In this document: one piece after another, positions 13,558-42,953 of the stretch
Numbering within the stretch: position 1 is the first letter of the stretch
Layout: each line of letters starts with the position of its first letter
Source: Candidatus Micrarchaeota archaeon
Lineage (GTDB): Archaea; Micrarchaeota; Micrarchaeia; Micrarchaeales; CABMGC01
Direction of reading: 5' to 3'
NCBI GenBank assembly: GCA_021851065.1
Contig: JAJZJQ010000002.1
Span: 4,750-68,749, forward strand
Length of the DNA stretch: 64,000 nt
Notes under the pieces: model-generated
What the model was told of the DNA's origin: nothing
What the model saw: the letters and a program-made list of their open reading frames with translations, nothing else
The model's database searches: none
Translations under genes and position numbers: made by a program

Positions 13558-14181
13558 TTACTTCGCCTTCATCTCCATCTTCGCTTCGAAGTCGGAGACC
13601 TTGTAATTGAACTCCTCGTTAGATTTTATTAAACCTTTCTCCTTCAGGAACTCGCGTGCCAGCAGCATGTACATAAGAGCTAGCGACTTTCTGCCCTTGT
13701 TGTTGCACGGCACTACCAGATCAACGAATTTTATCCAGTTGTCAGTATCGCAAAGCGCGATTATTGGGATGCTGGTGGAACTGGCCTCCTTTACAGCCTG
13801 CCTCTCGTTGCGCGTATCGCTCAATAGGGCTATCGAAGGCTCGGTGTAGTCGCTGCGGTTGGGGTTGGTGAATATGCCAGGTACTACCCTTCCGCTGATC
13901 AGCTTTGCGCCGATTATCTCGGCAAATTTAGCTGCAGAGGCTATTGCGTAGATTCTTGATGCCGTCACAACTATGTTCTTTGGCTCGTACTGTGCCAGGA
14001 GCTTTGCAGCCTGGCGTATCTTCTGGTCTATTGTGGACAGTTCTAGGAGATACAAGCCGTCCTCCCTTACCTTGTATATGTACCTTTTCATGCCCGGCGT
14101 CTTTACCTTTGTGCCTATGTGCACACCGACTTCAAGGTACGTTGCCTGATCTATCAGCAGTTCGTTTGCCATGATTATCAC
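13558..14181 (-). CDS. rps2: 30S ribosomal protein uS2
   Basis: LLIDQATYLEVGVHIGTK...; typical archaeal uS2 length and motifs. Confidence 0.93.
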   Translation of the reverse strand: MIIMANELLIDQATYLEVGVHIGTKVKTPGMKRYIYKVREDGLYLLELSTIDQKIRQAAKLLAQYEPKNIVVTASRIYAIASAAKFAEIIGAKLISGRVVPGIFTNPNRSDYTEPSIALLSDTRNERQAVKEASSTSIPIIALCDTDNWIKFVDLVVPCNNKGRKSLALMYMLLAREFLKEKGLIKSNEEFNYKVSDFEAKMEMKAK

Positions 14182-14186
14182 AAGTT

Positions 14187-14281
14187 CGGGGTCGCCGCGA
14201 TTTTCATAAGCGAAGGCTTATTTTGAACGCGGGTCTTATGCTCCCTAAGCACAGAGCCTAACCAAGCTAGCAGACGACCCC
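14187..14281 (-). tRNA. tRNA, Pro-like (anticodon loop UUAGGGA = AGG), with a 21-nt BHB intron in the T-loop (59/60)
   Basis: Acceptor GGGGUCG/CGACCCC, D-loop AGCUUGGUUA, anticodon stem UGUGC/GCAUA, T-stem CCGCG/CGCGG. The T-stems enclose 28 nt that fold as helix UUCA/UGAA flanked by 3-nt bulges AAA and AAU plus inner hairpin UAAGC-CUUC-GCUUA. Removing 21 nt restores UUCAAAU and a 74-nt tRNA. Weak point: U10-U25 mismatch. Confidence 0.65.
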
Positions 14282-14341
14282 GCGTCTTATATCTAGCATT
14301 GGTTATTTTTAAATGTTTACCTGCATTCATCTTACCGCCAA

Positions 14342-27374: not shown

Positions 27375-28535
27375 TCATGGCTGCATCCAGTCTATTTCGT
27401 AATAGTTGTTGCGGCTTCCAGCAAGCTTTATCTCCCTCACCACATAATATGTGACTGCAGTTTCCCTGTCAGCTATTGCCAGAACCGGCTCAAGGCCCAG
27501 GGATCTTGCAGCAGAGATTGCAGTGGCAAATTCGCCACCGCCTATGTATTCCTCCTCGCCAAGCGATAGCATGGCATAGCGCGGCTTGGAATTGGATGGA
27601 TTCTGAGTATCCCCGCCCTTCCTGTGGTACAGCACATAGTCTACCCTGGTCCTTGCCGAGCCGTGAATTCCAGGAACAGCCAGTATGAATGTCTTTCTGA
27701 CAGAATGTGCAACCCGTATGGCTCTTGCCCATTCCGATATAAGCAGCTTGGACTCCCTTGGGAACACGTGGATCACGTGCCTTGAATGGACCCACTCCTT
27801 GCTATTTTCCCCGCTGCCTGCTGGCCTGGTTCCTGGAAAATAGAGCCTGAAGTGGGTGCCAAACTTGAACCCTGTCTTCACAACATAGCCCTTGCTGCGC
27901 CAGTCTGCATATACACCGTACATTCTGTCGAAATCCTTGCGCCTTGACCTGGCGAACCTTAGCACATCCTTGCGCGTAGCGTTTTGCAGCTTGAGCACGC
28001 CCTTTGACATGAGAAATATGGTCTCGTATATGTCTAGTTTGTTTAGCCTGCCTCTGCCGGCGGCCTTGTATGAGCCGTATTGCCCAAACCACCAGCGCTC
28101 GTAAAGCGCCTTGCCCATGTCACCGTCTTCCGATATTGTGAGAAGGTCTGATTTGAAGAATGTGCCGCAAAGCCCCTTGCCCCTGGGAAGCGAGGCCTTA
28201 GAGCGCGTGTACTTCTTTGCCTTTTGAATAGCGCCATAGCTTAGTGCATCCGGGCTTCTTGCCACAAGGCCGCGCTCGCGCCAGTCGCGCAAAGTGAAGT
28301 ACCTGGCAGCAAATCTGCCAGACTTCCAGTATCTTGACGCCAGGCTGCTGAAAGTGGCGTCCCCTTTTGGAGTTGCACACACTGCACCCCTGGCATCCAT
28401 AAGGTATAGTGCTTCCTCAGGGAGCAGGATTATATTGGAGCCTGAGCGTTCGCCAAAGAAGCCGTGTCTTAGGGTATCTGCACTGGATGGATCAGTAACA
28501 AGGAACTTTCCATGCAAGTGCTCTATTCGTATCAC
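27375..28535 (-). CDS. endA: tRNA-splicing endonuclease, long three-unit (epsilon-type, ARMAN-like) architecture
   Basis: EndA N-domain-like ILLPEEALYLMDARG. Catalytic-domain motifs GYVVKTGFKFGTHFRLYFPG and WVHSRHVIHVF. An extra C-terminal EndA-like unit is present (KTFILAVPG..VDYVLYHRKGG). At 386 aa it is about twice a homotetrameric EndA. GTG start. Confidence 0.85.
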   Translation of the reverse strand: MIRIEHLHGKFLVTDPSSADTLRHGFFGERSGSNIILLPEEALYLMDARGAVCATPKGDATFSSLASRYWKSGRFAARYFTLRDWRERGLVARSPDALSYGAIQKAKKYTRSKASLPRGKGLCGTFFKSDLLTISEDGDMGKALYERWWFGQYGSYKAAGRGRLNKLDIYETIFLMSKGVLKLQNATRKDVLRFARSRRKDFDRMYGVYADWRSKGYVVKTGFKFGTHFRLYFPGTRPAGSGENSKEWVHSRHVIHVFPRESKLLISEWARAIRVAHSVRKTFILAVPGIHGSARTRVDYVLYHRKGGDTQNPSNSKPRYAMLSLGEEEYIGGGEFATAISAARSLGLEPVLAIADRETAVTYYVVREIKLAGSRNNYYEIDWMQP

Positions 28536-37795: not shown

Positions 37796-37882
37796 TGCGC
37801 CAGCCGGGATTTGAACCCGGGTTACAGCCTGTTTCCTTGGAAAATGGGAAGGCCGTGTCCTACCAGCCTAGACTACTAGCGC
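37796..37882 (-). tRNA. tRNA-Gly (CCC) with 14-nt canonical intron (37/38)
   Basis: Acceptor GCGCUAG/CUGGCGC with A73, D-arm GUCU..GGAC, anticodon stem CGGCC/GGCUG interrupted as UUCCCA[UUUUCCAAGGAAAC]A, T-arm CCGGG-UUCAAAU-CCCGG. 87 nt, 73 after splicing. Confidence 0.85.
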
Positions 37883-37938: not shown

Positions 37939-39654
37939 ATGAAGGCAGTTGCAGTTGTGGCTATCGCGATTTTAGCAGGCGCACTGCATGCATACCAGAT
38001 CCTGGGGCCCGGATATTACCTGTACAATAATGTTTCTGTGGGGGGCGCAGGGGCAATAATAGCCGGAGTAGATACTAACAGCAGCATAGATCTTGTAGTC
38101 ATTCCGGCACCGGATTTTGGCAGTTTTGCAGGGGGGCATAACACAGCCGACATCTACAATGCCACAGTTGGGTCAGGGGTATACAAGATACCCGCGCCAA
38201 GTGGCAGATATACAGTTATATTCGAGTCGGTGCGTAGCACTCGGCTTGCAGTTGGCGCTGTCCCGTACAGCACGGCAGGAGCAAGGCTTGTTAATCTGAA
38301 CGGAACGTATTCGTACAGCTTTGCTACGTCTAACTACAGCTACGTGAATATTACCGTGCTCTCTTCTGCAGACTTCCGCAGCCATCCGCTTATAGTCAAT
38401 GTATCTGGGGTAAGCACTTACATAAACTCAGACGCAGTAGTAGAATACCTTAATCTGACCGAAGGGAGCGGAGTGCACAGCATTCAGCTGAGTTCCCAGT
38501 ACCCCGAGCAAGTATTTGCGCTTGTATCGTCATCGGGCGCCATAGTCAACCCAGTGGAACTGCTTGGCAGCAACGCGTCTTACCCTGTAGGTGTTGCAAG
38601 CTATGGTGTGGATAATATATCCGGCGAACTTATACCATATGTGGTGCGCACAGGGGAGGTGGTTGGGGTAGCGAACATATCTGCGCTTAATGCGACAAGC
38701 GGAAACTTCTCTGAGCTAAACATCTCCAGGTACGGAGCTAGCCTGCAGCTTAACCTGCAGCTTCTCACCCACAGCGCAGGCAAAATGCAGGTATACTGGC
38801 TGCAGAATGTGGCTGACTTCAACACGAGCGCAAGAAGCATGTATTTCGTGGACAATATATGGAACAACACGCTGCCTGGAGCGAACCTGAGCAACGCTAC
38901 ACTGCTGGGAAGAGGAAATGTGACTGGATGCGGCATCTGCGGCCAGTCGTTCTATGCGTACGTATACCCGTATTATGGCATGAACTATACTCTTCCGCTT
39001 GACCTCAAGCTTGTTGTTGCGCAGGGGCAGACCGCAAACGGTACGCAGGTGTCCTTTGGGTACCAGTTGCTTGGGGCAGGGGAGTCTGGGACGAAACCGC
39101 TGGTTTATTATGATACGGTGCTTATCCCAGGAACTTATAATTCCACCATAATCGTCACGCCATATATGACAACCCCGTCAGGCAAAGGAAAGTACGGGAA
39201 CAACTATTACGATGCAGAACTGGTGTTTGCAGGGCAGTCGAATGGAGCCGATGCGTTATTCACGGAGCTTAATGCGTCCATGTGGATCTACTATCTGGAC
39301 AACGGCGCGCTCAGGCCTTTCACGTCGGCATATACCTTCGGCATGAACACACAGGAGAGTGCAACAAACGTGCGCGTTGGCCCCGGTGTAGGTGGAGCCG
39401 TAGCAACCCCAGGGCCCACCAACTACAGCGCGCAGATAATAGTGTCTAACGCGTTGTATGCCTACGCGCATTATATAGCTAACGAATCGCAGTATACCGC
39501 TCCACCTACAACAATCTCAAGTGCATACCAGCAGGGCGTGAGATCTGCCGTCTCGCTTTCAATAGCTGGAATTGTGCCATACTTAATGCTTGGGTCCATA
39601 GTGGTGGCAGTATTGGTGTTCGTTAGGTTCACAATAAGGAAGCTCTTTGGATAA
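37939..39654 (+). CDS. Secreted, heavily sequon-rich surface protein with C-terminal TM anchor; thermopsin (peptidase A5)-like region
   Basis: Signal-like N-terminus. YPVGVASYGV..., GASLQLNLQL, YWLQNVADFNT and FVDNIWNNT resemble the thermopsin family. Many NxS/T sites. C-terminal TM. Confidence 0.5.
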   Translation: MKAVAVVAIAILAGALHAYQILGPGYYLYNNVSVGGAGAIIAGVDTNSSIDLVVIPAPDFGSFAGGHNTADIYNATVGSGVYKIPAPSGRYTVIFESVRSTRLAVGAVPYSTAGARLVNLNGTYSYSFATSNYSYVNITVLSSADFRSHPLIVNVSGVSTYINSDAVVEYLNLTEGSGVHSIQLSSQYPEQVFALVSSSGAIVNPVELLGSNASYPVGVASYGVDNISGELIPYVVRTGEVVGVANISALNATSGNFSELNISRYGASLQLNLQLLTHSAGKMQVYWLQNVADFNTSARSMYFVDNIWNNTLPGANLSNATLLGRGNVTGCGICGQSFYAYVYPYYGMNYTLPLDLKLVVAQGQTANGTQVSFGYQLLGAGESGTKPLVYYDTVLIPGTYNSTIIVTPYMTTPSGKGKYGNNYYDAELVFAGQSNGADALFTELNASMWIYYLDNGALRPFTSAYTFGMNTQESATNVRVGPGVGGAVATPGPTNYSAQIIVSNALYAYAHYIANESQYTAPPTTISSAYQQGVRSAVSLSIAGIVPYLMLGSIVVAVLVFVRFTIRKLFG

Positions 39655-42224: not shown

Positions 42225-42953
42225 TCAGGATACTGAGCTAACCTTTGCCTGGGCCGGTGACACTGCCTCTTTAAAGAGGTCCTCAACCTCGCTCCTATTC
42301 ATTATGGTGAGCATTTCTCCGCACCCGCATCTGAAACCCACTTCAAAAGCAGAATCGAACGGAAGTATGGTTTTATTGGTGCTGTAACATGTCTTGCATA
42401 CAAAAAAATCATTGCAGTTTGCAGGGAAAGACGGCGCTGACGCCGCCGAAGGTCTGTCTATGTTCGATATGTACTCGCCAAGCTTTTCGCCGTCTATCTT
42501 CCATGTAAATATGAGCCATCCCTTGCTGTCCTTGTTGACATCATATTTAACTATACTATATCCATTCATCACATTAAGCATCCTTCTAACATCATTAACC
42601 TTTACATTAAGCTGCCCTGCAAGTGCCTCGTCCGTTTTGTGGCTTTTTGAGAGAGACACTAGTATATCTACCGCATTGCTGCCTACCTTGGTGCTTATGT
42701 TGGCTAGGAACGATTTATTACCAAGAAGCTCAACAACTTTGCTCATGTCTTCCACAACAAGCGTGTTGCCGCTGGCTTTATTTTTTTGATTTTTGGCTGC
42801 AGTCTTGTTGCTGGCAGGGCGCACCTCAAGGGAAGCCTTCGCACCGTGTTTCTGGTTAGAATGCTTGCGCGCCGGCCTAGATGCCTTCTTTTTATTTGCA
42901 GAATCCGCCTTTGCTACGCTAATCCTATTGTTTTTCTTTTTTGGAGACAACAC
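42225..42953 (-). CDS. tfe: Transcription factor E (TFE-alpha), possibly with a K-rich N-terminal extension
   Basis: wH domain (TDEALAGQLNVKVNDVRRMLNVMNGYSIVKY...GWLIFTW) and Zn ribbon (CKTC...CGCG). The core starts at ATG 42746. An in-frame GTG at 42953 lies about 50 nt below the TATA. Confidence 0.75.
   Translation of the reverse strand: MLSPKKKNNRISVAKADSANKKKASRPARKHSNQKHGAKASLEVRPASNKTAAKNQKNKASGNTLVVEDMSKVVELLGNKSFLANISTKVGSNAVDILVSLSKSHKTDEALAGQLNVKVNDVRRMLNVMNGYSIVKYDVNKDSKGWLIFTWKIDGEKLGEYISNIDRPSAASAPSFPANCNDFFVCKTCYSTNKTILPFDSAFEVGFRCGCGEMLTIMNRSEVEDLFKEAVSPAQAKVSSVS

Follow-up and report, generated by a model that had tools for sequence, protein, structure and literature searches.

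A tRNA-Pro(AGG) gene of a Micrarchaeota archaeon with a predicted 21-nt intron at site 59/60 of the T-loop

The pre-tRNA-Pro of ARMAN-2 carries two introns, one at 53/54 and the other at 59/60 (Fujishima et al. 2011, NAR 39:9695, Fig. 1C; PMC3239211), and the ε2 splicing endonuclease (EndA) of that archaeon cleaves a 59/60 intron, that of its pre-tRNA-Cys, in vitro (PMC3239211). Considered here is a relative of that gene, found in a 64-kb stretch of Micrarchaeota DNA (the window, to whose positions all coordinates refer), in which a tRNA-Pro gene at 14187–14281 has 21 nucleotides (nt) inserted within its T-loop. It shares with the ARMAN-2 gene the phylum, the amino acid, a strict bulge-helix-bulge (BHB) motif of the hBHBh' form at 59/60 and the ε2 type of endonuclease. 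It differs in having the 59/60 insert only, with none at 53/54, and an AGG rather than a GGG anticodon, the ARMAN-2 side of the comparison being taken from its published description. The case is already known in kind, since an ARMAN-2 orthologue with the same intron position was published in 2011, and no new mechanism is involved.

Other described systems are instructive in different ways. The ARMAN-2 pre-tRNA-Cys(GCA) has a 13-nt intron, also at 59/60, with a relaxed hBH motif that is cut in vitro by ε2 EndA (PMC3239211, PMC3488258). Insertion site and enzyme family are those of the window gene, and 13 of its tRNA-Pro orthologues have similar 13-nt introns, but the tRNA is another one and the window intron is of the strict type, with a 5-bp (base pair) inner helix and a tetraloop. 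With the canonical 37/38 BHB intron, for which the window's own tRNA-Gly(CCC) may serve as example, the likeness is one of geometry: the 3' portion of the intron is held by four bases of the loop and cleavage follows the second base of each of two 3-nt bulges, so that T-arm positions 54–57, 58–59 and 60 correspond to 32–35, 36–37 and 38. A 37/38 intron, however, sits in the anticodon loop and can be detected by ordinary finders in intron mode. Thermoproteales and Nanoarchaeota have introns at 20/21, 29/30, 53/54, 56/57, 59/60 and other sites (PMC4090602). These belong to the same BHB class, the window's site is among those listed, and the organisms likewise have broad-specificity endonucleases, though of the (αβ)2 type and with signs of recent intron transposition, whereas the window intron is conserved at one site.

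Very probably the locus is a functional tRNA-Pro(AGG) gene with its own TATA promoter and a BHB-forming intron at 59/60, which ε2 EndA cuts out before the exons are ligated into a 74-nt tRNA. An earlier note on this DNA had arrived at much the same view of the intron. Its observation is confirmed and its interpretation supported; the sequence and the T-loop insert are as it described them, and the strand, on which it was silent, is minus.

The gene, its insert and the orthologous series

Read in the RNA sense, from 14281 to 14187, the 5' part of the pre-tRNA is GGGGUCG UC UGCU AGCUUGGUUA GGCU C UGUGC UUAGGGA GCAUA AGAC and the 3' part is CCGCG UUCA AAA UAAGC CUUC GCUUA UGAA AAU CGCGG CGACCCC G. 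The gene and its parts are as follows.

14187..14281, minus strand: whole pre-tRNA-Pro(AGG) gene, 95 nt, G1 at 14281 and discriminator G at 14187 (ARAGORN on the spliced form, and 70 orthologues)
14222..14281, minus strand: 5' exon, RNA 1–60, ending CCGCG UUCAAA at standard position 59 (88–100% identity to 70 Micrarchaeota loci)
14201..14221, minus strand: predicted intron, 21 nt, AUAAGCCUUCGCUUAUGAAAA, at 59/60 (exactly missing in L045 and L074)
14187..14200, minus strand: 3' exon, comprising U60, the T-stem 3' strand CGCGG, the acceptor 3' strand CGACCCC and the discriminator G
14224..14227, minus strand: 5' strand of the central helix H, UUCA, T-loop positions 54–57 (100% of cells paired in the alignment of the 21-nt class)
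14203..14206, minus strand: 3' strand of the central helix H, UGAA, intronic (variants only UGGA and UGAG, with pairing kept via G·U)
14221..14223, minus strand: 5' bulge, A58 A59 / A, with the 5' cut predicted after 14222 from BHB geometry
14200..14202, minus strand: 3' bulge, A A / U60, with the 3' cut predicted after 14201 from BHB geometry (junction UUCAAA/U, the T-loop of L045 and L074)
14207..14220, minus strand: inner hairpin h', UAAGC / CUUC loop / GCUUA (5 of 5 pairs compensatory; found independently by RNAalifold)
14244..14246, minus strand: anticodon AGG (A34 G35 G36), followed by G37 (loop YUAGGGN in 70 of 70 orthologues)
14304..14313, minus strand: TATA-like box, TTTAAAAATA, centred ~27 nt 5' of G1 (A/T conservation in orthologues)

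In the unspliced gene the T-stem strands CCGCG and CGCGG flank 28 nt, within which UUCA and UGAA can form 4 bp and UAAGC and GCUUA 5 bp closed by a CUUC loop, with the bulges AAA and AAU on opposite strands. Two opposed 3-nt bulges separated by exactly 4 bp, flanked on the one side by the 5-bp T-stem (h) and on the other by the 5-bp UAAGC/GCUUA helix (h'), both of which covary, make this the strict hBHBh' that had been proposed for 59/60. Cutting in silico after the second base of each bulge takes out 21 nt and leaves the T-loop UUCAAAU in an RNA of 74 nt, just as had been predicted, and the same junction occurs naturally in L045 and L074. ARAGORN calls the spliced RNA tRNA-Pro(AGG). It is an elongator tRNA-Pro cloverleaf that keeps U8, G18G19, U33, G37, the G53:C61 pair and U54-U55-C56-A57-A58; the 3' CCA is not encoded by the gene.

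The reality of the tRNA is borne out, beyond its spliced cloverleaf, by its syntenic position, its conservation in 70 species and a TATA box of its own. For comparison, 79 Micrarchaeota genomes with a related S2 gene were used, the identity of the S2 protein extending down to 46–65%. Just upstream of S2, 70 of the 79 have the orthologous tRNA, with a 5' exon 88–100% identical to that of the window, and in all 70 the acceptor stem, the T-stem and the sequence between could be parsed. The insert is at exactly the same 59/60 site in 69 of these. Taken with the window gene this gives 70 intron-bearing genes with as many as 63 distinct bulge/intron sequences, from 11 to 33 nt in length, and in every one the UUCA:intron pairing is intact at all 4 bp, the intron strand being UGAA, UGGA or UGAG and nothing else, A to G being the one kind of change that leaves these bases paired, as U·G.

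Sixteen sequences, 15 of them distinct, have an insert of 21 nt and could be aligned. Compensatory double changes are seen in every one of the five pairs of the inner helix, and two T-stem pairs covary as well, one between C:G and A:U (6 distinct sequences) and one between C:G and U:A (1 sequence). In this class 98% of the cells are paired, versus 37–46% once the partners have been displaced by 1–3 columns, and the covariation score was reached by none of 500 shuffles. Among orthologues the other stems also vary in a compensatory way, for instance with GGGGCUG/CGGCCCC as acceptor stem and UUCU/GGAU as D-stem. As to register, intron base U76 pairs with A57, as the BHB has it, in all 15 distinct sequences, while the partner that the minimum-energy fold assigns to U76, intron base 1, fails to match it in 3 of the 16; by such sequence comparison the BHB register is favoured over an extended hairpin, and the pairing claimed at the outset stands.

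Two natural alleles are especially informative. L045, with A34, and L074, with G34, have no 59/60 insert and their T-loop reads exactly UUCAAAU. Thirteen orthologues, L034 and L037 among them, have 13-nt, loop-only introns at 59/60, and the inner hairpin is missing in many species. That an intron is conserved at a single site of one gene in at least 70 species suggests vertical inheritance from long ago. Furthermore 20 genes (18 A34 orthologues together with L067 and L074), though not the window copy, are interrupted at 53/54 by another intron, 11–20 nt long; the motif there has a CCCG/CGGG helix with bulges AG/A and AA/U.

About 50-130 nt upstream of S2: genes with the 53/54 intron, in L046, L078, L072, L071, L069, L044, L041, L027, L020 and L016
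About 50-130 nt upstream of S2: the remaining such genes, in L012, L073, L052, L040, L038, L018, L055, L045, L067 and L074

Most of these carriers have both introns, within 6 nt of one another, L045 and L074 having that at 53/54 only; the two-intron architecture resembling that of ARMAN-2 is thus found in L067 and 17 A34 orthologues.

Chance is excluded as the origin of the motif, by shuffles of the intron, by control scans and by the 69 orthologues with an insert at the same site. Shuffles of the 21 intron bases produced a strict BHB at a frequency of 4e-4 if the inner helix had to have 3 bp or more, and of 3e-5 if it had to have 5 bp. A scan in the manner of SPLITS, in which every segment of 11–70 nt that fits the rule of 4 bp and 3-nt bulges is excised before the product is given to ARAGORN, recovered the tRNA-Pro gene from the real window, and gave no matches in 8 strand scans of reversed or shuffled sequence that involved ~600,000 candidate splices.

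A few genomes depart from the pattern at this locus. In L032 and L051 S2 comes directly after rpoN with no tRNA gene between them (upstream of position 2501). What appears to be a lone tRNA 3' end is present just upstream of S2 in L068 (L068:2440-2480, ...UGGAAAU CUGGG CGGCCCG) and in L065 (L065:2450-2485, AAAU CCCGG UGGCCCA). A matching 5' acceptor strand was not found within the locus for either; each 3' end could be a remnant, part of a split tRNA or the far side of a very long intron. Each of these genomes has in addition, some 200–250 nt off and on the other strand, an intact tRNA-Pro(GGG) gene that has no intron.

The endonuclease, the path to a mature tRNA and other readings

A gene for the predicted enzyme lies in the window itself.

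27375..28535, minus strand: ε2-type (three-unit) tRNA splicing endonuclease EndA, 386 amino acids (aa), predicted enzyme for the tRNA-Pro intron (PDB 4FZ2, Pfam)

The earlier identification of this gene as one for a broad-specificity EndA holds up well. A single three-unit polypeptide, it aligns over its full length with 4FZ2, the ARMAN-2 EndA (residues 10–386 on 13–387, E = 2e-129), and the Pfam domains are tRNA_int_endo and tRNA_int_endo_N. The enzyme is from a different lineage and ~60% identical, by eye, to that of ARMAN-2, yet the catalytic triad Y232, H250 and K281 corresponds to Y236, H251 and K282 of ARMAN-2, and R274 and W383 of the bulge clamp to R275 and W384. Y156-K157, in GSYKA, corresponds to Y160-K161, in GTYKV, the ASL lysine of broad specificity being retained; indeed all the ARMAN-2 residues found important by mutagenesis or crystallography are conserved. 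Less can be made of the link that had been drawn between an intron outside 37/38 and an endonuclease of broad specificity. Such an enzyme is there, but by the substrate rules of archaeal EndA a strict 3-4-3 motif is probably also cut by the narrow-specificity kind, and so the dependence on broad specificity probably does not hold for the window intron. It is the short 13-nt loop-only introns of orthologues, rather than the strict form of the window, that should need the broad-specificity ε2 enzyme.

The path envisaged is a simple one. Transcription from the gene's own TATA promoter, between rpoN and S2, would give a 95-nt precursor, in which a helix of U54–A57 with the UGAA close to the intron's 3' end would complete, with the T-stem and the inner hairpin, a strict 3-4-3 BHB. 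Homodimeric ε2 EndA, encoded 13 kb away, would then cut after A59 and before U60, leaving 2',3'-cyclic phosphate and 5'-OH ends. The exons would be joined by a ligase of the RtcB type, which is standard in Archaea (PMC4090602), although no gene for it was found among the 10 long open reading frames of the window that were scanned. The CCA-adding enzyme would supply the 3' end, CCA addition being post-transcriptional because none is encoded, to yield the 74-nt tRNA with its canonical UUCAAAU T-loop. The spliced junction would read CCGCGUUCAAAUCGCGG and unspliced RNA UUCAAAAUAAGCC. The sequence and its motif, the synteny, the conservation and covariation, the exact intron-less alleles and the presence of an enzyme gene with an intact active site have been demonstrated; transcription, cleavage in vivo and ligation, as well as aminoacylation and decoding by the product, we infer.

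The exact cut sites call for some care. If both cuts are moved 1–3 nt upstream the mature sequence is identical (the last bases are AAA in the 5' exon and AAAA in the intron), and because these runs of A allow shifted cuts the label 59/60 comes from the BHB rule and not from the sequence by itself. Here the crystal of ARMAN-2 EndA with RNA is relevant. It has a 2'-deoxy substitution on the second bulge nucleotide, which we read as blocking the cut after it.

Several observations weigh against a spliced, working tRNA-Pro and are best faced together. The BHB fold, at -12.2 kcal/mol, lies 1.8 above the optimum of -14.0 and makes up ~4% of the ensemble; the central helix is returned neither by single-sequence folding nor by RNAalifold; the D-stem of the window copy begins with a mismatch, U10·U25; A34 is not what is typical of Archaea; and no RtcB ligase was seen among the 10 that were scanned of the window's 20 open reading frames (ORFs) of at least 330 aa. 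Energy models usually under-score BHB motifs, the 3-nt bulges being heavily penalised. The U·U pair (14272/14255, RNA 10 and 27) is present in the window and its closest relatives, in 8 of the 15 distinct sequences of the 21-nt class, with G·U in other species, and very weak D-arms were reported by Fujishima et al. in other ARMAN-2 tRNA-Pro genes (PMC3239211).

Those who would see a dead gene, with a T-loop insertion that is never removed and another tRNA-Pro to do the work, can point to the rejection of the locus by standard finders as well as to the D-stem mismatch and the anticodon unusual for an archaeon. We consider this extremely unlikely. Exons that are 88–100% conserved in 70 species with stems that compensate, a conserved promoter, and an insert that always keeps the 4-bp T-loop helix and the two 3-nt bulges despite drift in length and sequence are not what a pseudogene would be expected to maintain, for they have been held over S2 identities down to 46–65%. 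The proposal that the insert is not excised but enlarges the T-arm of the mature RNA, as a structural extension or an arm for binding protein, draws on the minimum-energy fold, a hairpin of 6 bp and a 6x6 internal loop that simply extends the T-stem. It can hardly be credited, however, as the invariant U54–A58 could in that case take no part in the tertiary interaction of D-loop and T-loop, the insert ranges from 11 to 33 nt with its hairpin missing in many species, L045 and L074 have no insert and an exactly canonical T-loop, and the comparison prefers the BHB register.

A different thought is that decoding is secondary or absent and that the main role is as a processing signal in rpoN–S2 operon RNA, through cuts by RNase P, RNase Z and EndA. 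The tight placing of the gene, on the same strand as both neighbours and 60 nt from rpoN, would suit this, as would L032 and L051 where S2 follows rpoN with no tRNA. That it is the main role is very unlikely nevertheless. Conservation such as a working tRNA would show extends to the anticodon loop (U33, NGG, G37), to the acceptor stem and to all bases of tertiary interactions, and there is the conserved TATA box. A processing role would in any case be compatible with tRNA function, and a functional, EndA-spliced tRNA-Pro remains the reading that we adopt below.

Detection, neighbourhood and host

It had been suspected that standard scans would overlook this gene, and they do. Neither ARAGORN, whether with its intron option (-i) or without it, nor Rfam makes a call on the unspliced locus, the latter at the gathering threshold or at E ≤ 10 (700-nt stretch). 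The intron search of ARAGORN, one of the checks that had been suggested, is of no help on the unspliced gene, while another, a BHB-aware scan such as the SPLITS-like one above, recovers it. To be missed when unspliced is expected behaviour of the tools and is not evidence against the gene.

The only other new match in the window was a tRNA-Val(GAC) candidate at 42376–42483 on the plus strand, with a 32-nt intron after base 8. Its acceptor and T-stems are mismatched, it has no G18G19 and it sits within a 271-aa ORF on the other strand, and we reject it as a false positive. The remaining matches are partial deletions of tRNAs already known. On the minus strand at 37796–37882 is the tRNA-Gly(CCC) mentioned earlier, whose intron, 14 nt long, occupies the canonical 37/38 and has a UUCC/GGAA helix and an inner part that is loop only; by default ARAGORN labels this locus 'tRNA-???' with anticodon 'attt'. 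With tRNA-Pro and tRNA-Gly(CCC) both split, at least two of the window's six tRNA genes are intron-containing.

The gene order is rpoD – tRNA-Leu(GAG) – L18e – L13 – S9 – rpoN – tRNA-Pro – S2, all on the minus strand, the neighbours' identities being confirmed by Pfam assignments on identical public contigs. By exact sequence, L13 was matched in ENA and JGI metagenome assemblies (ENA ERZ27236985, ERZ27237183 and ERZ27236973; JGI 3300033990), and EndA matched no record, probably owing to a different choice of start codon in public gene calls. The tRNA-Pro gene is 60 nt 3' of rpoN and the start of S2 is 5–14 nt further on. The S2 ORF, 13558-14181 on the minus strand, has its first in-frame GTG 6 nt after the tRNA 3' end, and public gene calls start S2 at the ATG at 14172 (MANEL..., 204 aa), 15 nt past the tRNA; either way the two genes are nearly contiguous. 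The share of A/T at positions -32 to -26 is 90–100% in the upstream regions of 71 orthologous genes, and it is because a TATA-like box is conserved in nearly all orthologues that we ascribe to tRNA-Pro a promoter of its own inside the ribosomal-protein cluster.

Judged by its sequences the host is one of the Micrarchaeota, EndA matching the ε2 enzyme of ARMAN-2 over its full length and the close S2 relatives all being metagenome-assembled genomes (MAGs) from Micrarchaeota. The names under which some contigs of the comparison set were deposited are 'Saccharimonadales bacterium', 'bacterium' and 'Marsarchaeota archaeon' (L019, L015, L008, L040, L042 and L062). With their Micrarchaeota-type S2 and tRNA-Pro, these are probably mis-binned or mis-labelled MAGs. 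Also in the window, at 37939-39654 on the plus strand, is a gene for an acid protease of the thermopsin family (Pfam E = 1.5e-62), which fits an acidophilic habitat.

A34 and what the series may tell

The most unusual feature of the gene, which the earlier note passed over, is its AGG anticodon. In archaeal tRNA-Pro the wobble position would be expected to be G, U or C; it is A in the window gene, as it is in each of its 70 close orthologues. G34 is seen in the distant relatives L067 (loop UUGGGGU), L074, L065 and L068, the loop register being the same in L067 and L074, in the latter once its own anticodon-loop intron has been removed. As recently as 2024 it was stated that Archaea have no tRNA genes with A34 (PMC11066159). 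For ARMAN-4 and ARMAN-5, tRNA-Pro(AGG) and tRNA-Leu(AAG) have been reported, ARMAN-2 having GGG (PMC3239211). They are at one with the window gene in having an archaeal tRNA-Pro with A34, and differ in that their endonucleases are of the α4 type, the window's clade having ε2 EndA and a tRNA-Leu that is still GAG.

How would such a tRNA serve the proline box? For a tRNA with anticodon AGG whose A34 is unmodified, the reading of CCU and that of CCC were measured at nearly the same level (12.9% versus 10.3%; PMC11066159), and replacement of G34 by A34 in that box is for this reason plausible even with no deaminase. Among window ORFs of 150 aa or more, none was found with a TadA/ADAT-like deaminase motif (H[AS]E…PCxxC). 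Proline codons in 56 long ORFs number 182 for CCU and 107 for CCC, as would fit a reader with A34, but we give this bias no weight since among leucine codons CUU likewise exceeds CUC despite the GAG tRNA. It is conceivable, and we put it forward tentatively and with somewhat more doubt than conviction, that in a large clade of Micrarchaeota (the window and 70 species representatives) the tRNA-Pro between rpoN and S2 exchanged G34 for A34 while keeping an older 59/60 intron, and that, if there is no GGG gene elsewhere, the A34 tRNA reads both CCU and CCC. The A34 would then be unmodified, or else deaminated by an archaeal enzyme not yet known, in contradiction of the textbook rule of no A34. 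The intron would be older than the switch because the G34 relatives, L067 and ARMAN-2, carry it too.

For those who count tRNAs there is a practical consequence. Since ARAGORN, and Infernal with Rfam, miss this gene, checks of MAG quality that rely on tRNA counts under-count in Micrarchaeota, and the gene is one needed to complete the organism's proline codon box. The series, with its 70 intron-bearing sequences, two precise intron-less alleles and 20 genes with a 53/54 intron, is a clean natural experiment which bears on the gain and loss of introns: what selection on the BHB intron keeps is the 4-bp helix and the bulges, not sequence, length or inner hairpin. Should the switch to A34 prove true, this would be a rare well-documented case of an ancient, vertically inherited non-canonical intron drifting in length between 11 and 33 nt under selection for the BHB only, and the clade-wide A34 bears on the evolution of wobble decoding in Archaea.

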